From Escherichia phage vB_EcoM_SYGD1: a stretch of DNA of 64,000 bases. This document shows positions 38,661-61,098 of this stretch, piece after piece. The stretch lies in sequence record MW883059. One strand, 5' to 3'. The notes beneath the pieces were generated by a model. That model was given only the letters and a program-made list of their open reading frames with translations, made no database searches and was not told the origin of the DNA. Position 1 is the stretch's first letter. Each line of letters opens with the position of its first letter. Position numbers and translations under genes: made by a program.

Positions 38661-38690
38661 GTTTACACGGGGTTTTAGTTGTGATACTAT
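38661..38690 (+). promoter_or_regulatory. T4-type early promoter cassette
   Basis: GTTTAC at 38661, extended -10 tgtgatactat; preceded by AT-rich UP-like tcacaaagtt. Confidence 0.6.
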
Positions 38691-38726
38691 TACCCTATCA
38701 AAACAAATGAGTGATTGGAGAATAAA

Positions 38727-38999
38727 ATGAAAACATTTAAAGAATTTATCAATGAAGCTACTTTTAACGAAAAAGTAAAAATTAGCAAAGCTGTCAAGAC
38801 TTTGATTGCTGACATCAATTACCTATATGATATTGATTTAACTGACTATGTAACAGTTGGTAACAAACGTAACTATTTCGTGTTTGACATCTCTGAACTT
38901 GACCAGAATCAAATTAACAACATTGAGCGTTTTGCTAATGATAGGGGTCTTCGACACGAGCCTGGTGGCTATAAAAAATACGCAATTTATTTAAAATGA
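38727..38999 (+). CDS. internal-protein-like protein with capsid-targeting-like N-terminus
   Basis: ORF track 38715 (TTG); ATG at 38727 after SD ggag; N-terminus MKTFKEFINEA fits the internal-protein targeting peptide consensus. Confidence 0.55.
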   Translation: MKTFKEFINEATFNEKVKISKAVKTLIADINYLYDIDLTDYVTVGNKRNYFVFDISELDQNQINNIERFANDRGLRHEPGGYKKYAIYLK

Positions 39000-39029
39000 G
39001 TTTACTTTTAGATAGGGTAGTGATACTAT
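39000..39029 (+). promoter_or_regulatory. T4-type early promoter cassette
   Basis: GTTTAC at 39000, -10 region tgatactat inside stem AGATA...TATCT. Confidence 0.6.
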
Positions 39030-39059
39030 TATCTCATCAAAATTAATTAGGAAAATAAA

Positions 39060-39371
39060 ATGAAAACATTTAAAGAATTTATCAATGAAGCGGCTGCTGC
39101 ACCAAAGACATTCGTTATTAATACTCAAGCGAGTCTTGATGATGAGTACGCGGAGGCAATTCTGAAGTCACTTGCTAAGAACGGCGTTGAAGTAATTGCT
39201 TCGGACTTTAAGAAAGGGGCTTCCGAGATGTTTATTTCTATAACTAAAGGATCTAAAGCTAAGATTAAATCATCATTCGGAGTTGCTCGTACCGATCAAA
39301 TCGACAATCATGACTTTAAACAAACTGGTGCTAAACGGCAGAATACGATTGCATCACGCGGAATAAAATAG
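39060..39371 (+). CDS. internal-protein-like protein with capsid-targeting-like N-terminus
   Basis: ORF track 103 aa; N-terminus MKTFKEFINEA identical at nucleotide level to the preceding gene for 33 nt. Confidence 0.55.
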   Translation: MKTFKEFINEAAAAPKTFVINTQASLDDEYAEAILKSLAKNGVEVIASDFKKGASEMFISITKGSKAKIKSSFGVARTDQIDNHDFKQTGAKRQNTIASRGIK

Positions 39372-39382
39372 TTTATAAAACC

Positions 39383-39412
39383 GTTTACTTTTAGATGGGG
39401 TAGTGATACTAT
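39383..39412 (+). promoter_or_regulatory. T4-type early promoter cassette
   Basis: GTTTAC at 39383, -10 gtgatactat inside stem GGGTA...TACCC. Confidence 0.6.
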
Positions 39413-39440
39413 TACCCTATCAACTACTGAGGAGAATAAA

Positions 39441-39626
39441 ATGAAACGTTGTGAATTAATTCGAAATGTTGCTATTGCAATTTCTGCTTCCGCTTTTAGT
39501 TTTTCAATGTTTGTTGGATTTATATGCGGATTATTAACTACAGCAGAAAATGTGTTTTCACTTGTAGTAGCATTTTTAATTGGTTTAATCGCTATCGTTA
39601 TGGATAAAATTTCTAAAGGTGAATAG
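39441..39626 (+). CDS. small two-helix membrane protein
   Basis: ORF track 61 aa; two hydrophobic segments; SD gaggag. Confidence 0.5.
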   Translation: MKRCELIRNVAIAISASAFSFSMFVGFICGLLTTAENVFSLVVAFLIGLIAIVMDKISKGE

Positions 39627-39627
39627 A

Positions 39628-40008
39628 ATGTACAAAGTGTATGCGGATTATCAGGCTAATCCATCTGAAAAGCCAGGTTGTCAAATTGGATGGGCTCATG
39701 ATACTTTGCTTGAAGCAGTAGATGCTGCTCAAAAATTGGGGTATAAATATGTAGAGATTGTTCAACCGTCAGGAAAAGTTATTACTCTTGAAGAGTTCAA
39801 TAACATTAAACCAAACTTTTTACTTTTTGCAGGTGATAATTATTATCCTCGTGGTGGATATGCTGATTTAATCGCGAAAGCCGCTACTGAAGATGAACTT
39901 CGTGACATTATCAAAGAAAATGAAAACAAACCAGATTATGGTTCTAATCGCTTTGATTGGTGGCAAATCGTAAATGCCAATACGCATACTATTGTTGATG
40001 AAGGCTGA
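39628..40008 (+). CDS. hypothetical protein
   Basis: ORF track 39619 (GTG); ATG at 39628 after SD aaaggtga. Confidence 0.5.
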   Translation: MYKVYADYQANPSEKPGCQIGWAHDTLLEAVDAAQKLGYKYVEIVQPSGKVITLEEFNNIKPNFLLFAGDNYYPRGGYADLIAKAATEDELRDIIKENENKPDYGSNRFDWWQIVNANTHTIVDEG

Positions 40009-40010
40009 TA

Positions 40011-40301
40011 ATGATTCTTTATGCGAAAGTATCATCCATTGAAAATGGATATAAATATGATCAAGACGCGGCTAAAGCCTTGATTGACGATTATGGCATT
40101 TTAACATGTTTTGAAGTTGAAAAGGTTTACATTGACCGTTCATCTTCTCAAGTTAAATTAGTGAAGGAAGACCGTAAATTTAATACAGTAAATTTTGATT
40201 TCTTTATTGAAACAGAAAAAGGTCCTCTTGAATATGATATTTTCAAGAATCCTTTGGGTCTTGAATGTATTAAATATACTTACATTAATGCAGCGTGGTG
40301 A
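40011..40301 (+). CDS. hypothetical protein
   Basis: ORF track 96 aa; ATG start. Confidence 0.5.
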   Translation: MILYAKVSSIENGYKYDQDAAKALIDDYGILTCFEVEKVYIDRSSSQVKLVKEDRKFNTVNFDFFIETEKGPLEYDIFKNPLGLECIKYTYINAAW

Positions 40302-40303
40302 AA

Positions 40304-40819
40304 ATGAATATTTGTTTAGGTACTACAATTCCGCAGGGCTACGTAATTGATGTCACTACCTGGGAAAATGATGGTGACAACTATAAAACCAAAACATTGT
40401 TTGGCGTAGAAGAGCATGAAATCTTACAATTCCAATATCTTTTAAAGAAGTTTAAAAGCAGACATTCTAGTACTAAAGCTGAACGTTATTGTGGTAATGG
40501 CTTGTTCAGCGAGCAATCGCTTTTTATTTATGAATACTTGGTTGAAGGACTGTTCTCAGAACAACTTTATCCAGAATTCATTAAAAAGGTCTTTGACATA
40601 GAAATTGACCTTGGTAATAAATCTGAAGAAGATGAAGAACGTGTATTTGACTTATTCTTTGTGAATGGTAATAAAGTGCTTGAAGGACTTATTAATATTT
40701 TAGGTAATGCTTCTGAGTATTATGATTATGATTTTTTGCGTGTAGTTGAGAGTGTTAAATACTCTTATATAGAAGAAGAAATTGTTTTGCCGACCGTTAA
40801 AATGTTTAATTTGCTTTAA
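40304..40819 (+). CDS. hypothetical protein
   Basis: ORF track 40295 (GTG); ATG at 40304. Confidence 0.5.
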   Translation: MNICLGTTIPQGYVIDVTTWENDGDNYKTKTLFGVEEHEILQFQYLLKKFKSRHSSTKAERYCGNGLFSEQSLFIYEYLVEGLFSEQLYPEFIKKVFDIEIDLGNKSEEDEERVFDLFFVNGNKVLEGLINILGNASEYYDYDFLRVVESVKYSYIEEEIVLPTVKMFNLL

Positions 40820-40905
40820 GAATTATTTGTTATTATTAACTCATATCGCACTGATTAATACCCTCTATCATCAAGGGTTCTTGTTTGAGAGCCTTTGTTA
40901 ATAAT

Positions 40906-40978
40906 TGGGAATTAGCCAAGTTGGTAAGGCATAGCACTTTGACTGCTAGATGCAAAGGTTCGAGTCCTTTATTCCCAG
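40906..40978 (+). tRNA. tRNA-Gln (anticodon UUG)
   Basis: hand-folded cloverleaf: acceptor tgggaat/attccca, anticodon loop ctTTGac, T-arm aaagg-ttcgagt-ccttt; no encoded CCA. Confidence 0.8.
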
Positions 40979-40979
40979 C

Positions 40980-41066
40980 GCGAGAATGGTCAAATTGGTA
41001 AAGGCACAGCACTTAAAATGCTGCGGAATGATTTCCTTGTGGGTTCGAGTCCCACTTCTCGTACCA
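40980..41066 (+). tRNA. tRNA-Leu (anticodon UAA), long variable arm, CCA encoded
   Basis: acceptor gcgagaa/ttctcgt, anticodon loop ctTAAaa, T-arm gtggg-ttcgagt-cccac, 3' acca. Confidence 0.8.
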
Positions 41067-41072
41067 AAGTTT

Positions 41073-41144
<72 letters not shown>

Positions 41145-41156
41145 AAATTTAATTTA

Positions 41157-41230
41157 CTCCGTGTAGCTCAGTTTGGTAGAGCGTCTGCTTTGGGAGCAGA
41201 ATGTCACAGGTTCAAATCCTGCCGCGGAGA
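41157..41230 (+). tRNA. tRNA-Pro (anticodon UGG)
   Basis: acceptor ctccgtg/cgcggag, anticodon loop ttTGGga. Confidence 0.75.
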
Positions 41231-41232
41231 CT

Positions 41233-41319
41233 GGAGGCGTGGCAGAGTGGTTTAATGCACCGGTCTTGAAAACCGGCAGTCGCTCCGGTGACTCATAGGT
41301 TCAAATCCTATCGCCTCCG
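41233..41319 (+). tRNA. tRNA-Ser (anticodon UGA), long variable arm
   Basis: acceptor ggaggcg/cgcctcc, anticodon loop ctTGAaa, T-arm atagg-ttcaaat-cctat. Confidence 0.8.
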
Positions 41320-41326
41320 TAATTTC

Positions 41327-41399
41327 GCTGATTTAGCTCAGTAGGTAGAGCACCTCACTTGTAATGAGGATGTCGGCGGTTCGATTCCGTCAATCAGCA
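41327..41399 (+). tRNA. tRNA-Thr (anticodon UGU)
   Basis: acceptor gctgatt/aatcagc, anticodon loop ctTGTaa. Confidence 0.8.
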
Positions 41400-41405
41400 T
41401 ATCAA

Positions 41406-41477
41406 GGCCCTGTAGCTGGAAGGTTCAAGCAAGCGACTCATAATCGCCAGATGGTGGTTCAATTCCACCCAGGGCCA
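41406..41477 (+). tRNA. tRNA with CAU anticodon (T4 tRNA-Ile homolog; Met by anticodon alone)
   Basis: acceptor ggccctg/cagggcc, anticodon loop ctCATaa, T-arm ggtgg-ttcaatt-ccacc. Confidence 0.7.
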
Positions 41478-41518
41478 TATTTTGGGAACATAAATACTCT
41501 TAGAAATAGGAGATATTT

Positions 41519-42184
41519 ATGTTCCATTACACTTATAAAATAACAAATAAAATTAATAATAAAATCTATATAGGCGCTCATTCTACCGAAAATTTAGATG
41601 ATGGATATATGGGTTCTGGTAAATTATTAAAAAGAGCCCAAGACAAGTATGGTATAGAAAATTTCTCTAAAGAAATATTAGAGTTCTTTGACGATAAAAC
41701 CTCTATGTTTGAGTCAGAAAAGAATATTGTGACTGAAGAGTTTTTAAAGCGCCCTGATGTTTATAATTTGAAATTAGGTGGTGAAGGTGGTTGGGACCAT
41801 TTAAACACTAAAGAATATTTGGATAAAAAGAAAGAAGCTTCCTTAAAAGGGGCTGCTGCTTTTAAAACCAGATTTGAGAACGACCCAGACCTTAAAGAAA
41901 AATATCGTAAAATGGGTTCAGAAAGGTTTAAACAGCTTTGGGATAATCCTAAGTATAGAGAGAAATTTTTAAATATTAAATCTTTATTGGGTAAGACCCA
42001 TACTCCTGAAACTATTAATAAAATGAAAGAATCTCACGCCAGAAATAAACACCAACAGGGCGAAAAGAATTCCCAATTTGGTATGATGTGGATTCATTCA
42101 TTAGATGAAAAAGTTTCTAAACGTATTAAGAAAACTGACCCAATTCCAGAAGGATGGTTTAAAGGTCGAAAAATGAAATTTTAA
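41519..42184 (+). CDS. segB: GIY-YIG homing endonuclease embedded in the tRNA cluster (SegB-like)
   Basis: ORF track 221 aa; TYKITN ... KIYIGAH GIY-YIG motifs; position between tRNA subclusters as T4 segB. Confidence 0.75.
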   Translation: MFHYTYKITNKINNKIYIGAHSTENLDDGYMGSGKLLKRAQDKYGIENFSKEILEFFDDKTSMFESEKNIVTEEFLKRPDVYNLKLGGEGGWDHLNTKEYLDKKKEASLKGAAAFKTRFENDPDLKEKYRKMGSERFKQLWDNPKYREKFLNIKSLLGKTHTPETINKMKESHARNKHQQGEKNSQFGMMWIHSLDEKVSKRIKKTDPIPEGWFKGRKMKF

Positions 42185-42187
42185 TTA

Positions 42188-42264
<77 letters not shown>

Positions 42265-42582
42265 GACAAGAAACCGGGTCGCTACCGGTAAGTCGTCGGA
42301 CTGATGTTCCCTGGGTAAGGAATTGCGTTAATAAATCTTTATGATTTGTTGATGCCCTCTTACACCACAGCAGAAACGGCGCACCGAATTATCGATTCGA
42401 GGAAATATCTTTGCCGTAAGCCGAGTAGCGTTTTTGACGGAACGTTCGGATATGGTCGAGATATGGCCTTTTAAAAATATTAAGTAGCGTCAACTGCTTA
42501 ATAACCGGGTTCGAATCCCGGCGTTTCGTACAAACACTTGCCTTAGCAGGTGGAACCCCGACAAGGTTGCCGCAAGGCTTTA
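42265..42582 (+). ncRNA. structured non-coding region, probable small stable RNAs (T4 species 1/2 analog)
   Basis: no ORF; GC-richer than surroundings; hairpins (accgg-gtcgct-accggt) and a tRNA-like T-arm ccggg-ttcgaat-cccgg; same position as T4 rnaC/rnaD. Confidence 0.35.
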
Positions 42583-42610
42583 GCCCCGACCGAAAGGTTG
42601 GGGCTTTTTG
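42583..42610 (+). terminator. Intrinsic terminator
   Basis: GCCCCGACC-GAAA-GGTTGGGGC followed by ttttt. Confidence 0.7.
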
Positions 42611-42611
42611 G

Positions 42612-42619
42612 TATAAATA
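42612..42619 (+). promoter_or_regulatory. Late promoter TATAAATA
   Basis: tataaata directly after the terminator, 40 bp upstream of the 42659 ATG. Confidence 0.5.
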
Positions 42620-42658
42620 TAGTAGTATATTAAATCACGAATTAAAACAGGAAATAAG

Positions 42659-43117
42659 ATGAAATCATATGCTCAATTTTTAAATGAAGCATCCGCTTCA
42701 GATGTTCGCGCTGTAGCAACTGCTGCTATTAAAGCTGGTAAATATTCTTATAAAGATGCTTCTGACGAATCTCGGTACAAGTTCTACGACGATATGAGAG
42801 CTGAAGGCTTTGTGGGTAACTATGTTACCACCGCCTGGAAAAGCCTGGTTGCTACTGGTGCGGCTTTCGAAAAACCTTCTGGTAAACCTGCTCCTAAGGC
42901 TGACCCTAAAGCAGCACAAGAAAAAAATATTGCTAAAGGAATTATTTCTAGGTATGAAGCAATTCTTAAAGAACTTTTGGTAATTAAGACCGAAGGCCAG
43001 AAACTTGCGCGAGCTCATAGTTTCAAAGATAACCCACATGCTCATGACCTAGAGTATGTTGAAGATCTCCAAAAAATCATCAAAGACCGCATTTGGTCTG
43101 CTAAACAAATTAAATAA
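42659..43117 (+). CDS. internal-protein-like protein with capsid-targeting-like N-terminus
   Basis: ORF track 152 aa; N-terminus MKSYAQFLNEA; SD aggaaataag. Confidence 0.5.
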   Translation: MKSYAQFLNEASASDVRAVATAAIKAGKYSYKDASDESRYKFYDDMRAEGFVGNYVTTAWKSLVATGAAFEKPSGKPAPKADPKAAQEKNIAKGIISRYEAILKELLVIKTEGQKLARAHSFKDNPHAHDLEYVEDLQKIIKDRIWSAKQIK

Positions 43118-43125
43118 CATTCTTA

Positions 43126-43152
43126 GCCCCAGCCGAAAGGTTGGGGCTTTTG
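43126..43152 (+). terminator. Intrinsic terminator (near-copy of the one at 42583)
   Basis: GCCCCAGCC-GAAA-GGTTGGGGC followed by tttt. Confidence 0.7.
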
Positions 43153-43285
43153 GTATCTAGGCCTTTCTGGACCTCTCTAGGCATCATTTAGTTTATACCC
43201 TTTATAATATATTATCCTATCCTTTAATTGCCCATCCCTGCCCTAGAATTCCCTAAAACTTTTTAAAAATTTTTTTCACAAAACG

Positions 43286-43315
43286 GTTTACATCCCCGTT
43301 CTTCCATGGTACTAT
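43286..43315 (+). promoter_or_regulatory. T4-type early promoter cassette
   Basis: UP-like tttttcacaaaac, GTTTAC at 43286, -10 tggtactatac. Confidence 0.6.
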
Positions 43316-43359
43316 ACAACTATCAACTACTGATACAGAAAAACAACTTGGAGAATGAA

Positions 43360-43623
43360 ATGGATAATTACGGCGAACTGTTCAACTTCTTTATGAAATG
43401 CGTTTCAGAAGATTTCGGTCGTACAGTGAATGATATTAAAGTTATCGGTCCTGATCATCCGATGTTTGAAACTTACGCAGTAATGGGTAATGAAGATGGT
43501 CAGTGGTATACTGTAAAGGTTGTGATTAACATGTTCACTGCTGAAGGTTATGTTAAACTGTCTTCTAAAGTTTACCATGATAATGATGAAATTGCAGAAG
43601 AATATTTCAATAATATGAAATAA
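43360..43623 (+). CDS. hypothetical protein
   Basis: ORF track 43306 would begin upstream of the promoter -10; ATG at 43360 follows SD ggag. Confidence 0.45.
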   Translation: MDNYGELFNFFMKCVSEDFGRTVNDIKVIGPDHPMFETYAVMGNEDGQWYTVKVVINMFTAEGYVKLSSKVYHDNDEIAEEYFNNMK

Positions 43624-43691
43624 ATGTGTACAAACGCCAAGGACGGTGTTATTATAGATTTATCAAAACAATCACAGAAGCGGAGAAATAA

Positions 43692-43868
43692 ATGACTACT
43701 TTAACTATTTGGTTTGACGAAAATGAAGAAACATACTGTGTGAACATTGATGAAAGTCCAATGCCTGACTTTGAATCTTCAGATAAGAAGTCGGTTATAT
43801 CTTGGGCTGAAGGTTATAAAGCAGCAAAAGGCGACGTTAAAATAGTTTATAAACTCTTTGGAGTATAA
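43692..43868 (+). CDS. small hypothetical protein (58 aa)
   Basis: not in ORF track (below 60 aa); ATG with SD cggag 7 nt upstream; hand translation MTTLTIWFDENEETYCVNIDESPMPDF... Confidence 0.35.
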   Translation: MTTLTIWFDENEETYCVNIDESPMPDFESSDKKSVISWAEGYKAAKGDVKIVYKLFGV

Positions 43869-43911
43869 TACTCCCACGGATTTTAAATCTTAATCAACCT
43901 AAGGAAATACT

Positions 43912-44505
43912 ATGAACACACTGAAGAAAATTGTTGAGTTTATTCGCACTAAACTTGGTTCTGCTATGGCTAAAAATCTATCTGTTGAAGAACAGTATAC
44001 TGCTGCAGCAGCAAAACTACTTGATAAAATTAAAGATCTAAAAACTGCTTCTGTTAAATCTATTAATGAAGAAAAACGTATTCGTGAACTTATTGTCGAA
44101 AAGAATCGACAAGCTGAATCAAAAGAGCGTGAAATTCGCAAACTTCTTTCCGAAGGTCAAGATGTAACAATGCACGCTAAACTCGGTTTGCTATATCGTC
44201 GAACAGCTGAGCAGTTGACTACTAAAGCTGATGGTTATGCTGAAATGCGAATTGAAATCGCCAAGAAAGTAGTTGAGTTAGATGATGCTCGCCAAGAACT
44301 TGCAGTTAAATTGGAATATATCCGTGAAACTCGTGCGGCAAATGCCCTTGGAATTAGTACTGCCGATGATGTAGTTGAAATTGCAGCACTGACTAAGGTT
44401 GATATTGAAGATACCCTTGCTCGAGTTGAAACTTTTAACGGCAATATTTCTGGGGTTGAAACTACCTCTGCCGATGTCCAGGAATATATTAATTCTCTGA
44501 AATAA
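43912..44505 (+). CDS. coiled-coil protein
   Basis: ORF track 197 aa; long heptad-like helical stretches. Confidence 0.5.
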
Positions 44506-44508
44506 TGA

Positions 44509-45519: not shown

Positions 45520-45859
45520 AGTCAAATATTCGCTTCCTGAGTCATTTTTAATTTTTGCTGTGGCGTTGGCTGCAGCTCTTGCGGGTAGTCTTTTTGGATT
45601 GTTAATTGACTGTCTTATTTTAAACATCGACGGCACAGTAAATATAATAGAAGTTTGGAGTGAACTTCGCTATACTAAAATTATTTCATTATTTTCATTC
45701 TTTTGTATCATTCTATATTTTCATTATGATAATTTTAAAATAAATTGGCAAAGAAAAAAGGATTACAAAATACAATTAAAAGAATATAATAGCTACATGT
45801 CTTATATTGAAAATGAATCAATGAAAGAGTTTGTGATTGATTGCAGGAAATTAAAATGA
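45482..45859 (+). CDS. two-helix membrane protein, no ATG start available
   Basis: ORF track 125 aa beginning with TTG inside the repeat; no in-frame ATG until the C-terminus; hydrophobic helices present. Confidence 0.35.
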   Translation: MLRNHDAKAKLNKVKYSLPESFLIFAVALAAALAGSLFGLLIDCLILNIDGTVNIIEVWSELRYTKIISLFSFFCIILYFHYDNFKINWQRKKDYKIQLKEYNSYMSYIENESMKEFVIDCRKLK

Positions 45860-46296
45860 AAACATTATCAGCTGGTATTATCTTTATGACAGAAGATAAA
45901 GATTTATTTATGGGACGAGTTACTGGTTCTCGTAAGCCTGGAATGATGGCACATCGCTGGGATATTCCAAAGGGGCGTGTAGAAAATTCTGATTTAAGCG
46001 CATTAGATGCAGCACGAAGAGAATGCTTAGAAGAGACCGGTTTTAGCAATTATAATCCAGACCTTCTAGAAGACCTAGGTGTATTTAAATATTCTAGTAA
46101 TAAAGACTTACAGTTATTTTATTATACGATTCCAGTAGAGCATGAGATGTTTAGAAATTGCCACTGCGAGTCTTATTTTGAAAATAAAGATGGCGTTATG
46201 ATTCCAGAGATGGATGCTTTTGCTCTTATTCCTCGTACTCAGTGGCAATATGTGATGGGTCCTTCACTTTACCGAATAATGAACAGCCTCTTTTAA
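45841..46296 (+). CDS. nudE: Nudix hydrolase
   Basis: ORF track 151 aa; Nudix box GRVENSDLSALDAARRECLEETGF; position upstream of e as T4 nudE. Confidence 0.8.
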   Translation: MQEIKMKTLSAGIIFMTEDKDLFMGRVTGSRKPGMMAHRWDIPKGRVENSDLSALDAARRECLEETGFSNYNPDLLEDLGVFKYSSNKDLQLFYYTIPVEHEMFRNCHCESYFENKDGVMIPEMDAFALIPRTQWQYVMGPSLYRIMNSLF

Positions 46297-46827
<531 letters not shown>

Positions 46828-46831
46828 AGTT

Positions 46832-46862
46832 GTTTACTTTCTCCAAGTAACTGTGATAGTAT
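46832..46862 (+). promoter_or_regulatory. T4-type early promoter cassette
   Basis: GTTTAC at 46832, -10 tgtgatagtat. Confidence 0.55.
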
Positions 46863-46887
46863 ATTCACAGTTACTTGGAGGGATAAA

Positions 46888-47304
46888 ATGACTCGTATTA
46901 ATTTGACTTTAGTATCTGAACTTGCTGATCAACATTTAATCGCAGAATACCGTGAACTGCCGCGTGTTTTTGGTATAGTTCGTAAACATGTTGCAAATGG
47001 TAAGCGGGTTAAAGATTTTAAAATATCTTCCGAGTTTATTTTAGGTTCTGGTCATGTCACGTTCTTTTACGATAAGTTAGAATTTTTGCGAAAGCGTCAA
47101 TCAGACATTATAACGGAATGCTTAAAACGCGGATTCAGTATAAAAGATACTGAAGTTCCTGACATCAGTGATATTCCAGTAGAATGGAAAAATGATTATA
47201 ATCCATGCAAATCAGCTATTAGGTTGAGTCAACAACGACTCGATGAAAAAATTTTAATGAAGCCACACTGGTACAAGTATTACGGCAAAAATATTTACAT
47301 TTAA
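46888..47304 (+). CDS. denV: endonuclease V, pyrimidine dimer DNA glycosylase
   Basis: ORF track 138 aa; [17 protein letters not shown]...WYKYYGK recognisable as T4 DenV. Confidence 0.9.
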
Positions 47305-49166: not shown

Positions 49167-49444
49167 TGGCTCAATTAAGCGCAGGGTTTGGTTATGAGTA
49201 TTATACTGCCCCTCGTCGTGTATCTGTTGCTCCTAAGAAAATTCAAAGTCTTGATGACTTCCAGGAAGTAGTCCGTAACGCTTTCCAGGATTATGCACGT
49301 TATCTTAAAGAAGATTCGCAGGACTGTCTCGAAGAAGATGAAATTGCTTACTATACGCAGCGTCTTGAACAGCTCAAAAATCTACATGAGGTTCGTGCAG
49401 AAGTTTCAAAGTCTATGAATAAATTGATTAGATTTAAAGAATAA
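49166..49444 (+). CDS. hypothetical protein (T4 vs.3 position)
   Basis: ORF track 49124; ATG at 49166 overlapping previous stop. Confidence 0.45.
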
Positions 49445-49446
49445 CT

Positions 49447-49476
49447 GTTTACTTTTCCTCTTGACTGTGGTATAAT
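49447..49476 (+). promoter_or_regulatory. T4-type early promoter for regB
   Basis: GTTTAC at 49447, 18 bp spacer, TGgTATAAT at 49468..49476. Confidence 0.65.
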
Positions 49477-49503
49477 TTTTCTATCAGTTAAGAGGAGAAC
49501 AAC

Positions 49504-49965
49504 ATGACTATCAATACAGAAGTTTTTATCCGTCGAAATAAGCTTCGTCGTCACTTTGAGTCAGAGTTTCGTCAAATTAACAATGAGATTCGTGAGGCAT
49601 CAAAAGCAGCAGGGGTCTCATCGTTTCATCTAAAATATTCTCAGCATCTCCTTGATCGTGCAATTCAACGGGAGATTGATGAGACATATGTTTTTGAATT
49701 ATTCCACAAAATAAAAGACCATGTTTTAGAAGTTAATGAATTCCTGAGTATGCCTCCGCGTCCTGACATTGACGAGGATTTTATTGATGGGGTTGAATAC
49801 CGTCCTGGACGTTTAGAAATCACAGATGGAAATCTTTGGCTTGGATTTACAGTTTGTAAACCTAATGAGAAGTTCAAAGACCCGTCACTTCAATGTAGGA
49901 TGGCAATTATTAACAGTCGTCGTTTACCAGGAAAGGCTTCTAAAGCAGTAATTAAAACTCAATGA
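49504..49965 (+). CDS. regB: RegB endoribonuclease
   Basis: ORF track 153 aa, same length as T4 RegB; position between denV and tk. Confidence 0.75.
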   Translation: MTINTEVFIRRNKLRRHFESEFRQINNEIREASKAAGVSSFHLKYSQHLLDRAIQREIDETYVFELFHKIKDHVLEVNEFLSMPPRPDIDEDFIDGVEYRPGRLEITDGNLWLGFTVCKPNEKFKDPSLQCRMAIINSRRLPGKASKAVIKTQ

Positions 49966-53796: not shown

Positions 53797-53820
53797 AGTC
53801 TCCTTCGGGAGACTTTTTTC
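53797..53820 (+). terminator. Intrinsic terminator
   Basis: AGTCTCC-TTCG-GGAGACT followed by tttttt. Confidence 0.7.
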
Positions 53821-53829
53821 ATTTTACTG

Positions 53830-53859
53830 GTTTACTTTCCATTTGAGCTGTGATACTAT
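53830..53859 (+). promoter_or_regulatory. T4-type early promoter cassette
   Basis: GTTTAC at 53830, -10 tgtgatactat. Confidence 0.6.
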
Positions 53860-53887
53860 ACAACCATCGGATAAAGAGGAGAACATC

Positions 53888-54064
53888 ATGAAAATTGAAG
53901 CACTTAATCGATATGTCATCATTAATGGTGATTTTTTCGTCGACATGGATGAAGTCACTAGTGAAGAACTTGTAGAACTTCTTAAGGAACATTATGATAT
54001 GTGTGATGAAGTTGCAACTCACATGGCGTGTGCAATATTCTCTCTTTCATATGTGGTGGAATAA
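53888..54064 (+). CDS. small hypothetical protein (58 aa)
   Basis: ORF track 53843 would start inside the promoter; ATG at 53888 follows SD gaggag. Confidence 0.4.
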
Positions 54065-54464: not shown

Positions 54465-54627
54465 AAAGCAGATGTTTTTAATGAAGCTAATTGAAGAATA
54501 CGCTAATGCAGTTTCTGACTATGAGTATTCTTCTCGTGAAAGAGGTACAGCTTTCGCAAAGGAAGAAATGAAAATTATGGTTGATGCTCACACAAAGCTT
54601 CAGAATTTTATTGAAAACGTCATTTAA
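54454..54627 (+). CDS. small helical protein, paralog family member (57 aa)
   Basis: not in ORF track; ATG after SD ggtgga; MKTEKQMFLMKLIEEY ... LQNFIENVI. Confidence 0.35.
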   Translation: MKTEKQMFLMKLIEEYANAVSDYEYSSRERGTAFAKEEMKIMVDAHTKLQNFIENVI

Positions 54628-54629
54628 CA

Positions 54630-54659
54630 GTTTACAAGTTGGCAAGGTTATGGTATAGT
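54630..54659 (+). promoter_or_regulatory. T4-type early promoter cassette
   Basis: GTTTAC at 54630, -10 tggtatagt. Confidence 0.55.
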
Positions 54660-54687
54660 AATCTTGTCAACTGTCAAGGAGAAGAGA

Positions 54688-54792
54688 ATGAAAATTTTGT
54701 TTGTTGTGTATGTGATGATTCAATATAATTACCCAATGTTTACTTATAATCTGGTGAACAACATTATTGATATTATTCAAAGGAGCATGTAA
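54688..54792 (+). CDS. 34-codon hydrophobic small ORF
   Basis: not in ORF track; strong SD aaggag 7 nt upstream; stop overlaps next start (TAATG); MKILFVVYVMIQYNYPMFTYNLVNNIIDIIQRSM. Confidence 0.25.
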   Translation: MKILFVVYVMIQYNYPMFTYNLVNNIIDIIQRSM

Positions 54793-54977: not shown

Positions 54978-54978
54978 C

Positions 54979-55245: not shown

Positions 55246-55246
55246 T

Positions 55247-55777: not shown

Positions 55778-55783
55778 GGAAAT

Positions 55784-56305
55784 ATGTTTATTTCGAGTGA
55801 AAGTGGTTTAATTCGTGTTGAATTTAAAAATGACATCTTCCTTATTCAAGGAGATGATATTATTAAAATGAGTTATGACGAAATCAAGAAAATTTGCCAT
55901 GCTCTTGAAAGTCATGGAAAAGTGAACGCTGTTATTGATATTGGCGATTTATGGGTGACACTTTATGAAGTATCCGAAGGATTTAACATTGAAGATGAAA
56001 ATAACATCTTAGCTATTGATAAAAGAAGTGATTTGTTTGATGTATTAAAAGTTTATGAACATTCAAACGGTGGAAGAAAAGCTGTATTGATTTATCAAAA
56101 ACCGCATTCATGCGGAACTGCTTCAATCATTTCAAATATTGAAGATGAAACTGATACTTATATGTGTGTTTTAAAAGCTGGTGGTGACCGTCATCCGGAT
56201 TTTATTTCTATTCGTCAAAACAATGGAGAAATTTCATTATCAAAATCAGAAGCTGAAGCTATGATTAAGTATTTAACAACTGTTACACCTTCAATGAAAG
56301 GATAA
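55784..56305 (+). CDS. hypothetical protein, tandem paralog B
   Basis: ORF track 173 aa; SD gagga. Confidence 0.5.
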   Translation: MFISSESGLIRVEFKNDIFLIQGDDIIKMSYDEIKKICHALESHGKVNAVIDIGDLWVTLYEVSEGFNIEDENNILAIDKRSDLFDVLKVYEHSNGGRKAVLIYQKPHSCGTASIISNIEDETDTYMCVLKAGGDRHPDFISIRQNNGEISLSKSEAEAMIKYLTTVTPSMKG

Positions 56306-56307
56306 TT

Positions 56308-56769
56308 ATGATTATTAATGAAAGCTCTTGGCACTATAAATTATTCAAAATGTTTAATGATGAATGGAAACGACCTAAGACACTGTGCGCGTATTTTTGG
56401 TCTATTGTTATTCCTACATTTTTCGTTTCTTTTTTCGGATGTACTATACTCGCAGGTCTAACTATCATCTGCGCAGAAATCATGCAGAAATGGCTTATTT
56501 TTGGTAGTTTATGGACTCTTATTCCATCAGCATTTATACTTGCCATTTTGCTTGTTTTACTTATTATTGGTTCATTTGTTATTCCTGCACAACTGCATGA
56601 AAAATATAAAGATTATAAATGGAAAAAGGATTATACTTTACATGTAGAAAATATTGATAGGGCGTATAAAGGTTTACCTCCTATTAAACCCAAGAAATCT
56701 ATTATCGTCGAATTTTTAAAAGCTCGTAAAGCTAAAGTATGTCCTGTTATTGAATATAAGGCTGAATGA
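56308..56769 (+). CDS. integral membrane protein (3-4 predicted helices)
   Basis: ORF track 153 aa; long hydrophobic stretches. Confidence 0.5.
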   Translation: MIINESSWHYKLFKMFNDEWKRPKTLCAYFWSIVIPTFFVSFFGCTILAGLTIICAEIMQKWLIFGSLWTLIPSAFILAILLVLLIIGSFVIPAQLHEKYKDYKWKKDYTLHVENIDRAYKGLPPIKPKKSIIVEFLKARKAKVCPVIEYKAE

Positions 56770-57779: not shown

Positions 57780-57780
57780 T

Positions 57781-57808
57781 AGGGAGCCTTCGGGCTCCTT
57801 TTTTTTAT
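57781..57808 (+). terminator. Intrinsic terminator
   Basis: AGGGAGCC-TTCG-GGCTCCT followed by ttttttttattt. Confidence 0.7.
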
Positions 57809-57830
57809 TTCAAAAATTTTTCACAAAGTT

Positions 57831-57860
57831 GTTTACTTCTATCATAAAGCATATTATAAT
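57831..57860 (+). promoter_or_regulatory. T4-type early promoter cassette
   Basis: UP-like caaaaatttttcacaaagtt, GTTTAC at 57831, 18 bp spacer, TATAAT at 57855. Confidence 0.65.
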
Positions 57861-57892
57861 ATATTTGTAGTTAATTAATCGTTCTTTAAAAA

Positions 57893-58393
57893 ATGAAGAG
57901 AAACACAATGCATATTTTAATGAAATGCCTTGGCAACAAAATTAATGATTTTAATCATAAGCGTGTTAATGATTACATTAAAGACACACTTGAGATTAAA
58001 GACGTACTTTTTAGAGGACTTACAATAGAGGAAGTACTATCTCATAAGTTTGAAGTTAATAGGAGAATCAAATTTAAAAGAATAACTTCCTTTAGTAGTG
58101 AATCTCATATAGCTGAAACATTTGCAGCAGAACGCTATATGACTAATGTTTTAATAGTGTTAAAAAATGCAAACGTTTTTGACTATTCAACTGCTATGAT
58201 TGAAATTTTAGAAAATTTAATCGCAATTGAAGAATCTGGCCAGATTGATGATGATAAGCTTAATAAGCTTTATGATAATCTTTCTATGGTGGATTATGAA
58301 AGAGAGTTTTTATTGCCAATTAATTCGGAGTTAACAGTTAAAAACATATATTTTGATAGCAAAAAGAGCATGCATATAATAGAAATGGAATAA
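57893..58393 (+). CDS. hypothetical protein
   Basis: ORF track 166 aa; bracketed by promoter and terminator copies. Confidence 0.5.
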   Translation: MKRNTMHILMKCLGNKINDFNHKRVNDYIKDTLEIKDVLFRGLTIEEVLSHKFEVNRRIKFKRITSFSSESHIAETFAAERYMTNVLIVLKNANVFDYSTAMIEILENLIAIEESGQIDDDKLNKLYDNLSMVDYEREFLLPINSELTVKNIYFDSKKSMHIIEME

Positions 58394-58401
58394 AAGCATA
58401 A

Positions 58402-58428
58402 AGGGGCCCTAGAGGTCCCCTTTTTTAT
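58402..58428 (+). terminator. Intrinsic terminator
   Basis: GGGGCCC-TAGA-GGTCCCC (one mismatch) followed by ttttttattt. Confidence 0.65.
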
Positions 58429-58450
58429 TTCAAAAATTTTTCACAAAGTG

Positions 58451-58480
58451 GTTTACAAGCATAAAGCTTTATGGTACTAT
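58451..58480 (+). promoter_or_regulatory. T4-type early promoter cassette
   Basis: UP-like caaaaatttttcacaaagtg, GTTTAC at 58451, -10 tggtactat. Confidence 0.6.
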
Positions 58481-58516
58481 ACAACTATCAAAACAAACAC
58501 TTAAACGGAAAACAAA

Positions 58517-58666
58517 ATGAAAATTACACCAATTGAAGTAAAAAAGTTGATTGATACAGAAGAAATTTCAGAGTGTTTTGAAAGTTTCTTAGAAGACGCA
58601 ACTGAAGATAACGCGGTTTATCTCGCCCAGAAAATTATCGAAACTTATTTGGAGAAGAATCAATGA
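58517..58666 (+). CDS. small helical protein (49 aa), possible paralog family member
   Basis: not in ORF track; weak SD; ends ...IIETYLEKNQ; ATGA overlap with next gene. Confidence 0.3.
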   Translation: MKITPIEVKKLIDTEEISECFESFLEDATEDNAVYLAQKIIETYLEKNQ

Positions 58667-58926
58667 CAGTTTACGTAGATGTTTTAATGAATCATGGATG
58701 GAAACTTCGCGGTCATCCAACTAAAAATTGTCATATGTTCACTGATGGAGATATTGAAGAGCTTCATAAAATGGCAGAAGCAATAGGAATGAAACGTTCT
58801 TGGTTTCAAGATAAACGCATTAAACATTATGACTTACACGCGCGCCGCCGCCAAAAAGCTGTAGAACTTGGAGCTGTAGAAGTATCTCGTCGCGAAGCAG
58901 TAAAAATTTGGCAAACATTAAAATAA
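58663..58926 (+). CDS. small conserved protein, DUF4031-like
   Basis: ORF track 87 aa; pattern MTVYVD...RG....CHMF.D...ELH..A..IG..R.WFQ....HYDL resembles the DUF4031 family as I recall it. Confidence 0.45.
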   Translation: MTVYVDVLMNHGWKLRGHPTKNCHMFTDGDIEELHKMAEAIGMKRSWFQDKRIKHYDLHARRRQKAVELGAVEVSRREAVKIWQTLK

Positions 58927-58929
58927 ATT

Positions 58930-58959
58930 GTTTACAGTAGGGTAGTAGTGTGATACTAT
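58930..58959 (+). promoter_or_regulatory. T4-type early promoter cassette
   Basis: GTTTAC at 58930, -10 tgtgatactat inside stem GGGTA...TACCC; same cassette as at the internal-protein-like locus. Confidence 0.6.
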
Positions 58960-58995
58960 TACCCTATCAAAACAAATGTGAAATTGGAGAATAAA

Positions 58996-59964
58996 ATGAA
59001 AACTGTAACTATCAATAAGGGTATCTACTTCGGTAAAGAAATCTCTGGAACTTTTGAGCTCTTAGGCGAATGGTTCCCAGATAATGCTCCGGTAGATGCA
59101 CAAGGAGATGGTAAAGTTTTTGTTGAAATTGACGGTAAGCGTCGCGGTGTTTGGGTTTACAAATCAGACATTTCATATGATGGTGTAAAAGTTGAAGAAG
59201 TTAAAGAATCGTATGAAGATATGAAAACCCGCATTAATAAAAGATTTAATGTTATGGGAATGATGACGAATGGTATTATTAACGGAAATATTCGTTCATT
59301 GATTATCTCTGGCGCAGCAGGTATTGGTAAAACGTATTCTTTAGATAAAGCTTTAAATAAAGCAAATGATATTGGATACATTGAATATAAAAGCATTAAT
59401 GGTAAAATCTCTGGTATTGGTCTTTATGAACAGCTTTGGAATAATCGTGAAGAGAATTCTGTCCTTTTGATTGATGATGTGGATGTTTTCTCTGATATGG
59501 ACATTCTTAATCTTCTAAAAGCCGCTCTGGACACCGGAGAGACCCGTAAAGTCTGCTGGAGCACTGCATCTTCTTACTTAGAAGAAAAAGGCATTGAGCG
59601 TGAGTTTGAATTTAAAGGAACGATTGTTTTTATCACAAACGTTGACATTGACCGCGAATTAGACCGTGGTACTAAACTTGCTCCACATTTACAAGCATTA
59701 GTGTCCCGCTCAGTTTATTTGGATTTGGGTGTTCACACTAATGAAGAAATTATGGTCAGGGTTGAAGATGTTATTCTTTCAACCGACATGATGCAAAAGC
59801 GCGGTCTTTCTGATGAAGAAACTTATAAAGCATTATCATGGATGAAAGTCAATGTTAATCGTTTACGCAATGTTTCACTGCGTACTGCACTTTATCTTGC
59901 TGACTTTATTATGACCGACAAAAATCATTGGGAAGAAATTGCTGAAACGGTATTATTAAAATGA
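58996..59964 (+). CDS. P-loop ATPase (AAA-like)
   Basis: ORF track 58978; ATG at 58996 after SD ggag; Walker A GAAGIGKT, Walker B VLLIDDVD. Confidence 0.6.
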   Translation: MKTVTINKGIYFGKEISGTFELLGEWFPDNAPVDAQGDGKVFVEIDGKRRGVWVYKSDISYDGVKVEEVKESYEDMKTRINKRFNVMGMMTNGIINGNIRSLIISGAAGIGKTYSLDKALNKANDIGYIEYKSINGKISGIGLYEQLWNNREENSVLLIDDVDVFSDMDILNLLKAALDTGETRKVCWSTASSYLEEKGIEREFEFKGTIVFITNVDIDRELDRGTKLAPHLQALVSRSVYLDLGVHTNEEIMVRVEDVILSTDMMQKRGLSDEETYKALSWMKVNVNRLRNVSLRTALYLADFIMTDKNHWEEIAETVLLK

Positions 59965-60680
59965 AAAAATATTTTACTATCTATAAAACTGAAATATTAA
60001 ATTTAAAGACAGGTATTAAGAAATACTATTATGGTCGACATATAACTAATAACATCAATGATTCGTATGTTGGTAGTGGAAATTATATAGAACGTGTAAA
60101 AGTGTCAAATGACCACATATTATCAAAAACGGTTTTAGAAGTTTTTGATAATTATGATAAAATGGTACAAGCTGAAATATTATATATCATGGCAGGTAAA
60201 TTGAAATATGGAAAAAACTGTGTTAACCTGTCATACGGGGGTGAAGGAGGAAAGGTTGCAGATGAAACTAGGATAAAATGCAAAAAGCATTCTATAAATT
60301 TATGGAAAAATCCTAATCATATACAGCATATGAAGAAAAAGATGAAAGAGGTTACATCCACGCCGGAAGCTAAATTAAACACTTCAATAAAAACTTCGCA
60401 ACGATATAAGGACCCAGTTTTTGTTAGAAAAGTTAGTAATATTATTAAAAAGAAACTAAGCAATCCTGTAGTAAAAGAAAAGCATATTAATGGAATTAAA
60501 GCTGCAAAGCGTTCTCATTTAACTATATGGCAGTATGAAGATGAATTATTCGAGCTTTGGAAAGAAACTAAATATGGATGGAGAAAATTTACAAAGGAAG
60601 CTATAAAACACGGATATCCAAATGAACCGTATCGTAGTATGGTATCAACTTTTCAGAAAAGACATTTAGAAGAATCCTAA
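59961..60680 (+). CDS. GIY-YIG homing endonuclease (Seg-like)
   Basis: ORF track 239 aa; FTIYKTE ... KKYYYGRH GIY-YIG motifs; C-terminal repeated basic modules. Confidence 0.7.
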   Translation: MKKYFTIYKTEILNLKTGIKKYYYGRHITNNINDSYVGSGNYIERVKVSNDHILSKTVLEVFDNYDKMVQAEILYIMAGKLKYGKNCVNLSYGGEGGKVADETRIKCKKHSINLWKNPNHIQHMKKKMKEVTSTPEAKLNTSIKTSQRYKDPVFVRKVSNIIKKKLSNPVVKEKHINGIKAAKRSHLTIWQYEDELFELWKETKYGWRKFTKEAIKHGYPNEPYRSMVSTFQKRHLEES

Positions 60681-60763
60681 GACAAAAAAGGCAGTTCAGA
60701 AATAGATTATATGGACTGCCATTAAAAAGATGACTAGAATTAAACTTGTAAATGGAGGTAATG

Positions 60764-61066
60764 ATGTTATACTCAAAGGCTCGTGAAATTTACGAAACTA
60801 AAATTAAAGAAGCAGTACTTCAATTCGCAACAACGATGCGATGGACAAATGATTGGGAGTATTCAAAAAATCATAAGAAGCCCCTGGTGACAAGAAAGGC
60901 TCATATGTTAGTGTTAATAGACCGTGAGCAGATTAAAGCCCGAGAAGCCCTCCAGAATCATAAAAAGGCTGCCTTTGAATGGTTTATGGATAACACTGCT
61001 CCTGAGACTAAGAAAGCAGTGAGCGCTTGGTTCAGTGGAAAAAATTGTGAAAGAAGTTTCTTTTAG
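60764..61066 (+). CDS. hypothetical protein
   Basis: ORF track 60752; ATG at 60764 best placed relative to SD ggagg. Confidence 0.4.
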   Translation: MLYSKAREIYETKIKEAVLQFATTMRWTNDWEYSKNHKKPLVTRKAHMLVLIDREQIKAREALQNHKKAAFEWFMDNTAPETKKAVSAWFSGKNCERSFF

Positions 61067-61068
61067 TG

Positions 61069-61098
61069 GTTTACAAGACTGTTCCTCTGTGGTACTAT
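61069..61098 (+). promoter_or_regulatory. T4-type early promoter cassette
   Basis: GTTTAC at 61069, -10 tggtactatac. Confidence 0.6.

Follow-up and report, generated by a model that had tools for sequence, protein, structure and literature searches.

In a review (Hinton 2010, PMC2988021), the early promoters (Pe) of phage T4 are described as 'uber' UP/-35/TGn/-10 promoters, which carry further consensus regions. In phages RB49 and phi1, promoter-early stem-loops (PeSLs) were defined as an early promoter together with a stem-loop that lies in the interval from the -35 to the -10 box, overlaps either box, or is found upstream or downstream of the promoter (Arbiol 2010, PMC2839356). The PeSL consensus in PST and T4 is TTTACW-N17-TAYWAT, and there the stem-loops are just upstream of the promoter (Comeau 2014, PMC4122927). 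PeSL-like, more A/T-rich elements were seen at the internal-protein loci of T-even phages by Repoila et al. 1994 (as told in PMC2839356). T4 also has hairpins that sequester a ribosome-binding site (RBS) and contain an internal promoter, at e, soc, 49, I-TevI/II/III and segB (PMC2988022, PMC3014915). For this device the reviews list only late promoters, and the genes 'are all late genes' (PMC2988022; PMC3014915). Here, we report on a set of repeated elements of the Pe type in a stretch of 64 000 nucleotides from Escherichia phage vB_EcoM_SYGD1 (sequence record MW883059), referred to below as the window. A first-pass annotation, made from the sequence alone, had described twelve copies of one early-promoter cassette with an embedded stem-loop, located between positions 38661 and 61098.

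The twelve repeats are ordinary, previously published T4-type early promoters (PeSL-type cassettes) and represent known biology in a well-sequenced phage group. As the promoters and PeSLs themselves are already known, the aspect worth pursuing is the design of the promoter spacer, which at some sites carries a sequence complementary to the Shine-Dalgarno (SD) sequence of the gene downstream, and the complementarity of this design with upstream terminators. Many Tequatrovirus genomes, NIC06P2, W143, RB32, RB33 and RB14 among them, match the flagged region at ~95 % identity over 83-90 % of its length, and the window is from a Tequatrovirus. The + strand of the window corresponds to the minus strand of T4, and window 35.6-64 kb is collinear with T4 77.0 to 48.9 kb, covering gene 2, 57A/B, ipI, the tRNA cluster, e, denV, regB, tk, rI and mobD to nrdC.3. 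The gene 2-to-nrdC.3 stretch of T4 is one of the classical early 'hyperplastic' regions.

T4 has GTTTAC-type sites, which we take to be its mapped early promoters, at matching places before ipI, trna.4, e.8, e.7, e.6, ipIII, ipII, denV, regB, mobD.5, mobD.2, nrdC.10, nrdC.8 and nrdC.4. The window sites correspond to those upstream of ipI, trna.4, e.8, e.7, ipIII/denV, regB, mobD.5, mobD.2, nrdC.10 and nrdC.8 (T4 positions 73939, 73572, 70696, 70359, 66498, 65413, 62797, 58780, 57990, 55384 and 53943). Because they are collinear with a GTTTAC-type site before the same gene in T4 and their consensus matches the published ones, the elements are identified as early promoters, which unmodified E. 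coli RNA polymerase would transcribe as soon as the cell is infected. We consider it probable that they are the sigma-70-dependent early promoters of a T4-like phage, with spacer hairpins that act on read-through RNA. They share with the T4 promoters the UP tract, GTTTAC, the 17-bp spacer, TGn, the -10, the extra conserved positions, the orientation and the downstream genes. Nothing essential differs, though the ipI locus and 57.8-59.0 kb have additional copies in this phage and the ipII and ipIII promoters are missing.

The pattern GTTTAC-N(16-19)-TAnnnT was found on the + strand at all twelve positions reported in the first-pass annotation, namely 38661, 39000, 39383, 43286, 46832, 49447, 53830, 54630, 57831, 58451, 58930 and 61069. 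In the window the pattern occurs 15 times (expected, 3.48 +/- 1.76), a number that none of 100 shuffles reached. The three extra matches (35894 on the + strand, 50570 and 63009 on the - strand) are without the flanking consensus and equal in number the chance expectation. A generic sigma-70 scan was dropped because it showed no enrichment over shuffles (56 vs 45.7 and 69 vs 60.7), and only the T4-specific pattern was informative. GTTTAC and TAnnnT are present in 12/12 sites, with a gap of 18-19 nt counted from GTTTAC, and the TG of an extended -10 in 11-12/12. An A/T-rich tract lies at -20 to -4 relative to the -35, with A or T kept in 8-12/12 sites at -18 to -4, and cTATCAA follows 5-11 nt past the -10 in 9-11/12. 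Conservation past the two hexamers, including the ctatcaa leader, had been claimed, and the A/T tract, TG and cTATCAA are indeed kept across the twelve-copy comparison. The consensus anatomy is an A/T-rich UP tract, the -35 GTTTAC, a 17-bp spacer, a TGn extended -10 and then cTATCAA, a region within which the transcription start would fall, followed by a short leader with a strong SD 6 nt before the ATG (median -35-to-ATG distance, 59 nt). A position weight matrix trained on the twelve sites gave no further copy at >=18 bits on either strand of the 64 kb. A degenerate thirteenth copy, missed in the original count, was found by eye and by a repeat search at 43626 (GTGTAC-N18-TATTAT-agatTTATCAAAACAA). 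All 13 cassettes sit between a stop codon and an SD/ATG located 53-70 nt after the -35.

The cassettes are not twelve copies of one sequence, as had been thought. The variable 13-nt part of the spacer has a mean pairwise identity of 29 % and is shared solely by 39000 and 39383 (92 %). Mean pairwise identity is 39 % for the upstream 30 nt (97 % for 57831 and 58451) and 43 % for the downstream 30 nt (90 % for 38661 and 58930). The long identities reported between copies are real: 38656-38734 and 58925-59003 are 84 % identical over 79 nt, including 26 nt that are identical, 38717-38758 and 39050-39091 are 98 % identical, and 57783-57836 and 58403-58456 are 85 % identical. On this comparison, the elements are mosaics of common functional blocks, in which the extra segments shared differ from pair to pair, and the similarity would be accounted for by an extended functional consensus with occasional, patchy and recent recombination or gene conversion between cassettes. 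In RB69-like genomes (loci L090-L094, L099 and L114), one near-identical cassette, spacer and anti-SD included (GTTTACATCTCCTGTAG...CTACAGGAGA), precedes denV, regB and nrdC.8, and there whole cassettes have indeed been copied between genes. T4 has this cassette before denV (T4 65413).

Each element was folded from the -35 to just past the ATG, with z-scores calculated against shuffles, and +1 was assumed to lie 7 nt after the -10. The folding check bore out strong embedded stems at 6/12 sites, 39383, 46832, 49447, 54630, 58930 and 61069 (z -2.65 to -7.1), and the other six have a weak stem or none. The inverted repeats noted earlier at 39000 (AGATA...TATCT), 39383 and 58930 (both GGGTA...TACCC) are present, but that list understated the feature, since 46832, 49447, 54630 and 61069 have stems of 12-19 bp. 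In the strong stems, the -10 is in the loop or adjoins it, the 5' arm is in the promoter spacer and the 3' arm is in the transcribed leader. With its 5' arm in the spacer, the hairpin loses that arm from the local transcript whatever the exact start, and folding shows no structure in RNA that begins at the predicted +1 (0 to -2 kcal/mol).

At 46832, 49447 and 61069, and weakly at 43286, the SD is in the 3' arm and a CTCC-type anti-SD is in the 5' arm, just past GTTTAC. The predicted cost of opening the RBS in read-through RNA and in RNA from +1, respectively, is 24.4 and 2.8 kcal/mol at 46832, 19.8 and 5.3 kcal/mol at 61069, 16.7 and 4.1 kcal/mol at 49447, and 9.1 and 3.4 kcal/mol at 43286. 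At the remaining sites the difference is <3 kcal/mol. Hence these four have what is expected of an RBS-sequestering hairpin, one that takes in the SD and has its 5' arm outside the local transcript, and compensatory change is found in relatives, both in orthologues and in a covariance model fitted to the structure. The consensus elements of the promoter are also mutually complementary. TGATA (TGn and the start of the -10) pairs with TATCA of cTATCAA, for example at window 39404-39421, giving an apical 5-bp helix even in chimeric sequences (helix 2 of the covariance-model alignment), and the conservation of cTATCAA may serve structure as well as initiation.

The terminator scan found no T-run after any embedded hairpin, and these stems, which are followed by A-rich leaders, do not conform to intrinsic terminators. 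Canonical terminators, with a GC-rich stem and a T-run, were found only at 42582, 43125, 53797, 57781 and 58403. The last three are upstream of cassettes 53830, 57831 and 58451, all of which are among the six without a strong embedded stem. A search of 36000-64000 with Rfam covariance models gave only eight tRNAs that reach the gathering score, and no family for the stems.

For a wider survey, 229 distinct promoter-to-ATG segments from ~30 T4-like genomes were reduced to 138 clusters at 85 % identity, which are not phylogenetically independent. The mean z for these segments was -2.04, with 49 % at z <-2 and 35 % at z <-3, and the mean minimum free energy was -14.1 kcal/mol. For 150 gene starts without a promoter, the corresponding values were -0.23, 10 %, 4 % and -8.7 kcal/mol. 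RNAs from the 138 promoters begun at +1 averaged -1.2 kcal/mol. At least 6 pairs straddle the -10 in 113/138, and in 60/138 at least 3 of 4 SD bases are paired with a partner upstream of +1. In a chimera test, which does not depend on an alignment, native segments folded at -14.1 kcal/mol, compared to -9.5 kcal/mol with the 3' half of another cluster (Wilcoxon p = 3e-15), and the native sequence beat at least 38/40 chimeras in 57/138 cases.

Upstream regions of regB and denV in T4-like contigs from IMG/VR, with protein identities from 99 % to ~54 %, have the same architecture and different stem sequences. Examples of the 5' and 3' arms at regB are CUCUUGACUG/CAGUUAAGAG, CUCUAGUUG/CAACUAGAG and CUGUAAGU/ACUUACAG. 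At denV there are two geometries, with the 5' arm either adjoining the -35 or overlapping the -10/start region, and the SD is masked in both. A covariance model was built from eight gapless cassettes and used to search 1.01 Mb of loci, and 62 distinct sequences were aligned. Paired cells made up 91.2 % (80.1 % in shuffles), 81 cells were changed on both sides (21.5 in shuffles) and the covariation score was 0.233 (0.089 in shuffles; 0.03-0.07 in slid-partner controls), with 0/500 shuffles reaching the observed value in each case, in an alignment that is fitted to the structure, so that the counts lean its way, a bias from which the chimera test is free. Compensatory pairs were seen at 10/15 positions overall and at 9/10 in the outer helix. 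An earlier alignment of 12 regB-type promoters with MAFFT and RNAalifold suffered register shifts from differing loop lengths and recovered only 6 pairs; it was replaced by the covariance model and the chimera test.

Stem strength is also related to the presence of a terminator. Promoters with an intrinsic terminator <=60 nt upstream (n=21) had a mean z of -0.48, with 14 % at <-2, whereas those with no upstream terminator (n=117) had a mean z of -2.32, with 55 % at <-2 (Mann-Whitney p = 1e-4; Fisher p = 7e-4). The hairpin and the upstream terminator behave as alternatives and are largely mutually exclusive, which fits a role in handling transcripts that arrive from upstream.

In the mechanism that we propose, the promoter spacer would serve as the 5' hairpin arm, and only read-through RNA would fold, because local transcription would start beyond that arm. 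At denV, regB and nrdC.8, and weakly at e.8, read-through RNA would be translationally silent, and the gene would be expressed only while its own early promoter fires. Rho polarity would be favoured on a cistron that is not translated, and polarity after masking could explain the 'attenuator' behaviour of PeSL stem-loops without a U-tract. A sequestered GGAG would also be shielded from RegB. RNA secondary structure blocks RegB cleavage and RegB production 'must be tightly regulated' (PMC3014915), a statement that masking at regB fits. The hairpins at 39383, 54630 and 58930 end at the start site and leave the SD free, and for these, attenuation, a barrier to processing or stabilisation of the 3' end are possible roles.

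The proposal follows the logic of T4 e and I-TevI, where long transcripts hide the SD in a hairpin and transcripts from a promoter inside the hairpin are without the 5' arm and are translated. It differs from the T4 late-gene hairpins in having an early internal promoter, in using the promoter spacer as the 5' arm and in its recurrence at many early genes. If experiments confirm it, the early-promoter hairpins would, by this analogy, extend the gene e/I-TevI logic from late to early promoters. The PeSL interpretation made in the first-pass annotation agrees with the published accounts (PMC2839356, PMC4122927). [quoted passage not shown] A stable stem-loop accompanies the promoter as an embedded stem at six sites and as an upstream terminator stem at three, and three to four sites have a weak one only. 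However, in contrast to T4 and PST, most of the strong stems here are embedded in the promoter, and they are A/T-rich and individually tailored, whereas PeSL stems are polyG/polyC. In the original PeSL paper (PMC2839356), a term search turned up nothing on translation, ribosomes or sequestration, and here the 3' arm is often the SD. We put forward, tentatively and as something possible rather than probable, that the spacer of many T-even early promoters doubles as an anti-SD arm, making the gene translatable only from RNA of its own promoter, and that this device is functional and not yet described.

Several points weigh against this proposal. The start used here is a predicted one, placed 7 nt after the -10. 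SD masking is found at 4/13 window cassettes and not at the other nine, and five hairpins in the window leave the SD untouched. Chimeras still fold at -9.5 kcal/mol, and the TGATA/TATCA complementarity of the consensus supplies part of the excess stability. The relatedness of the survey clusters and the lean of the covariance counts, noted above, belong here as well. A comparison of sense and antisense stability, tried as evidence for RNA over DNA, was rejected as non-promoter controls show the same bias. Masking of the SD at early promoters is not described in the 2010 reviews or the PeSL papers, although the older T4 literature (Liebig & Ruger 1989, Repoila 1994, Miller 2003) may already have the SD pairing.

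The most serious alternative is that each embedded stem-loop terminates or attenuates transcription and so shields its cassette from transcription upstream, as proposed for PeSLs, and that pairing of the SD is incidental. The stem-loop of an RB49 PeSL cut downstream lacZ as much as the rrnB T1 terminator did (PMC2839356), and attenuation without SD masking may be the main role, a further point against our proposal. The alternation of embedded stems and upstream terminators is what would be expected if both stop read-through, and the five hairpins off the SD are readily accommodated. However, the T-run of a terminator is found only at the upstream stems, nearly half of the surveyed promoters (the 60/138 above) pair the SD with a partner upstream of +1, and the covarying helix is the anti-SD/SD helix itself. 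The drop in lacZ could also come from polarity after translational masking. On balance, we regard this explanation as doubtful, though it deserves to be taken seriously.

It is improbable that these are plain early promoters, in which all similarity is RNA polymerase consensus and the inverted repeats are due to chance or are a by-product without function. The unrelated spacers, which rule out a strict repeat family, the pairing of consensus elements that persists in chimeras and the 6/12 window sites with a weak stem or none are all compatible with it. They do not account for the excess of stability over both shuffles and non-promoter gene starts, for the advantage of native halves over chimeras, for compensatory change in 9 of the 10 outer-helix pairs, for masking of the denV SD by two geometries or for the depletion of stems where a terminator lies upstream.

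A role for the inverted repeats in DNA, where as cruciforms or palindromes they would be recognised by a protein of phage or host, such as a factor that shuts off early promoters or endonuclease VII (the latter would turn them into hot spots of recombination), is very improbable. The reviews leave the shut-off of early promoters unexplained (PMC3014915, PMC2988021), the -10 is at the centre of the repeats, and some recombination breakpoints are inside cassettes. Against this, the arms vary between promoters and offer no common operator, the SD, an RNA signal, often forms the 3' arm, and dependence on a missing upstream terminator is transcript-level logic. G-U replaces A-U at mobD.2 and G-U is also found in regB, with pairing kept only in the sense RNA.

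Breakpoints were defined in 38.6-64 kb using chained BLAST alignments of the window with T4 and eight close relatives from IMG/VR, and ~17 distinct insertion, deletion or replacement events were identified. Both breakpoints are in cassettes at three loci, each of which has several alleles among the relatives. At the ipI locus (38747-38762 to 39383-39403), T4 ipI is replaced by two other internal-protein genes. At the e/denV junction (46816-46887), the denV promoter is a hybrid, and ipIII and ipII are missing. Between 57796/57850 and 58469/58984, the single T4 cassette is matched by three in the window, which enclose two inserted modules; in one relative the first module alone is missing, and another has a different insert. 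In addition, the replacement of e.7 has one breakpoint in the 43626 cassette, and in all only 4-5 of the ~17 events involve a cassette. By a rough estimate, ~0.6 of 17 events would have both ends in cassettes if breakpoints were confined to gene boundaries, so that three represents a modest enrichment over gene boundaries. The other side of the account is that ~12 events are not at cassettes, among them those at segB and mobD, the insertion of a 239-aa homing endonuclease at 59961, inserts beside tk.2 and tk.3, the e.2 deletion, the nrdC.4/nrdC.5 deletion and others, and several of these involve homing-endonuclease genes; this also tells against our reading of the cassettes. The earlier claim that cassettes delimit the accessory ORFs is not supported. 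From the alignments, the cassettes appear to be exchange hot spots, or preferred crossover points, for accessory modules, yet not general delimiters of accessory genes. No movement of the inserted modules to other loci was seen, module B being always just downstream of nrdC.11 and module A not being found in the loci compared.

Mini-circles between PeSLs detected in RB49/phi1 (PMC2839356), the reuse of one cassette before three genes in RB69-like genomes and the three cassettes against one in T4 at 57.8-59.0 kb might suggest autonomous mobile elements that move promoter, leader and first codons via a dedicated recombinase, but this is highly improbable, as the cassettes are without terminal repeats, target duplications or an associated recombinase, spacers are unrelated within this genome, module B occupies the same locus in other genomes, most indels (~12 of ~17) are elsewhere and the shared first codons are a capsid-targeting leader or already native to nrdC.10.

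With regard to those first codons, the first-pass annotation had the cassettes donating MKT to unrelated genes. This could not be upheld, because MKTFKEFINEA is the capsid-targeting leader of internal proteins, whose function has been described (PMC9391042), and elsewhere MKT is a common start or native to nrdC.10. In the region, ATGAAA is the start of 14/51 genes and ATGAAAAC is the start of six, only three of them behind cassettes. T4 nrdC.10 already starts with ATGAAAACTG (first letters ATGAAAAC) behind a different promoter, and homology to T4 nrdC.10 resumes at 58984, inside the stretch TTGGAGAATAAAATGAAAAC that is common to cassettes 1 and 11. This stretch is probably better read as crossover microhomology. 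The downstream ORFs had also been called novel. Each one is in fact a T4 orthologue or a member of a PHROG family, including denV, regB and two internal head proteins, and the non-T4 inserts were all assigned to PHROG or Pfam families. The entire 57.8-59.0 kb arrangement was found in nine database phages at 92-98.6 % identity.

The individual cassettes, all on the + strand, are as follows. Cassettes 1-3 flank polymorphic internal-protein genes, as do the elements at the corresponding loci of T-even phages, and the internal-protein genes here share promoter, SD and the leader MKTFKEFINEA. Cassette 1 (38616..38729; -35 38661-38666, -10 38685-38690, SD GGAG 38717, ATG 38727) is collinear with the T4 ipI promoter region, has a weak stem, GGGGT/ACCCT, around the -10 (z -1.26) and precedes an internal head protein gene (38727-38999, phrog_7673). 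Cassette 2 (38955..39062; -35 39000, -10 39024-39029, ATG 39060) is a copy of the T4 ipI promoter and capsid-targeting leader (90 % to T4 73939-73857) with a degraded stem (z -0.33), and its gene (39060-39371) encodes a second internal head protein, phrog_2667. In cassette 3 (39338..39443; -35 39383, -10 39407-39412), which precedes the trna.4 orthologue (ATG 39441), the stem-loop at 39394-39421 has the -10 in its loop (-16.4 kcal/mol, z -2.65). Cassette 4 (43241..43362; -35 43286, -10 43310-43315), before the e.8 orthologue (ATG 43360), has weak pairing between spacer and SD (z -1.42). The degenerate cassette 13 (43581..43694; GTGTAC 43626, -10 TATTAT 43650-43655, leader TTATCAAAACAA, ATG 43692) precedes a 58-aa ORF that replaces T4 e.7, and T4 has a Pe-type site before e.7 at 70359.

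Cassette 5 (46787..46890; -35 46832, -10 46857-46862), before denV (ATG 46888), has the most stable stem, in which 46838-46856 forms 19 pairs with 46865-46883 and the SD GGAGG (46877-46881) is in the 3' arm (-30.2 kcal/mol, z -7.1). Its 5' part is from the T4 ipIII promoter; both ipIII and ipII, which in T4 lie between e and denV, are absent from this phage (window 46827-46888). Within the 19-pair denV stem (46838-46883) there is a perfect 16-bp palindrome, whereas the closest relatives, L109 and L013, are mismatched (CTCCTAGAATTGTGA / TCACAATTACTTGGAG), and here the 5' arm has been altered at several positions to fit the 3' arm, suggestive of selection or of hairpin-templated correction. In cassette 6 (49402..49506; -35 49447, -10 49471-49476), before regB (ATG 49504), 49453-49470 pairs with 49481-49499, with the anti-SD in the spacer and the SD in the 3' arm (-22.4 kcal/mol, z -4.9). 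Cassette 7 (53797..53890; -35 53830, -10 53854-53859), before mobD.5 (ATG 53888), has an upstream intrinsic terminator at 53797-53814 with a T-run and no embedded stem-loop (z -0.28). The stem of cassette 8 (54585..54690; -35 54630, -10 54654-54659), before mobD.2 (ATG 54688), has 15 pairs between 54637-54651 and 54658-54672, two of them G-U pairs that are A-U in T4, and does not involve the SD (-19.0 kcal/mol, z -4.2).

Cassette 9 (57781..57910; upstream terminator 57781-57800, -35 57831, -10 57855-57860) drives a 166-aa ADP-ribosylase-like ORF (57893-58393) that is absent from T4. The ORF is similar to the C-terminal portion of the RNA polymerase ADP-ribosylase family (phrog_832, E = 4e-24), is present in phage T2 and is annotated as ADP-ribosylase in some database phages, and its product appears to be a short ADP-ribosyltransferase-like protein with its own terminator-plus-early-promoter cassette. 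Cassette 10 (58403..58519; upstream terminator 58403-58419, -35 58451, -10 58475-58480, ATG 58517) corresponds to the T4 nrdC.10 promoter (85.8 %) and drives 49-aa and 87-aa ORFs. Cassette 11 (58885..58998; -35 58930, -10 58954-58959), before nrdC.10 (ATG 58996), has a stem-loop at 58937-58967 that takes in the start of the -10 (-19.6 kcal/mol, z -3.9). In cassette 12 (61024..61129; -35 61069, -10 61093-61098), before nrdC.8 (ATG 61127), 61079-61093 pairs with 61109-61123 and the SD GGAGG is in the 3' arm (-25.5 kcal/mol, z -6.6).

Some further features were noted away from the cassettes. A 152-aa ORF at 42659-43117 (phrog_2280), between rnaC and e.8, has a capsid-targeting-like N-terminus (MKSYAQFLNEA), and this third locus, outside the two classical internal-protein loci, distinguishes the window from the T-even pattern. 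The ORF is preceded by a late promoter, TATAAATA, at ~42612 and flanked by two 93 %-identical copies of the terminator TTAGCCCCGACCGAAAGGTTGGGGCTTTT (region 42582-43148), and relative L119 has a second gene of the capsid-targeting type (MKTYAEFLTEA) past the second terminator. The arrangement at 42582-43148 looks like a terminator-plus-late-promoter analogue of the PeSL one. An inversion of this ORF in relatives suggested by tblastx was an artefact, as blastn shows collinearity. The e.2 deletion relative to T4 (45830-45866) has a 30-nt overlap at its junction, and nudE starts with AGGAAATTAAAATGAAAACATT, which is 95 % identical to the internal-protein leader region; SD/start-codon microhomology may drive deletions even without a promoter. 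Other differences from T4 include a 174-aa ORF (phrog_2290) at 40295-40819, between trna.2 and the tRNA cluster, replacement of mobD at 55784-56769 by a y05I-like ORF (PF24449/PF24448) and a membrane protein (phrog_944), insertion between nrdC.10 and nrdC.9 (59961-60680) of a 239-aa homing endonuclease (phrog_314), and the absence of nrdC.4/nrdC.5 (window 63017-63035). In T4, ipIII and nrdC.5 have been reported to act against host defences (PMC9391042). A site resembling a MotA-type middle promoter, CTGCTTTA-N12-TATAAT, is located before the nrdC.7 orthologue at 61655-61680.

For annotation, the value of these data lies in thirteen early transcription units in a region with anti-defence accessory genes. 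If the spacer hairpins act as proposed, they would amount to a general device, maintained in evolution and used in place of an upstream terminator, coupling translation to the promoter of origin. For denV, regB, nrdC.8 and others, RNA that reads through from early, middle or late promoters upstream would be silent. The same property would supply a translational (polarity) account of the 'terminator' activity of PeSL stem-loops without a U-tract and a compact design rule, with promoter and translational insulator in ~60 nt, that could be used in synthetic constructs. For the phage itself, expression of regB, denV and further early genes would be bound to the 2-3 min for which their own promoters are active, which would help to explain the abrupt stop of early protein production when early promoters shut off.

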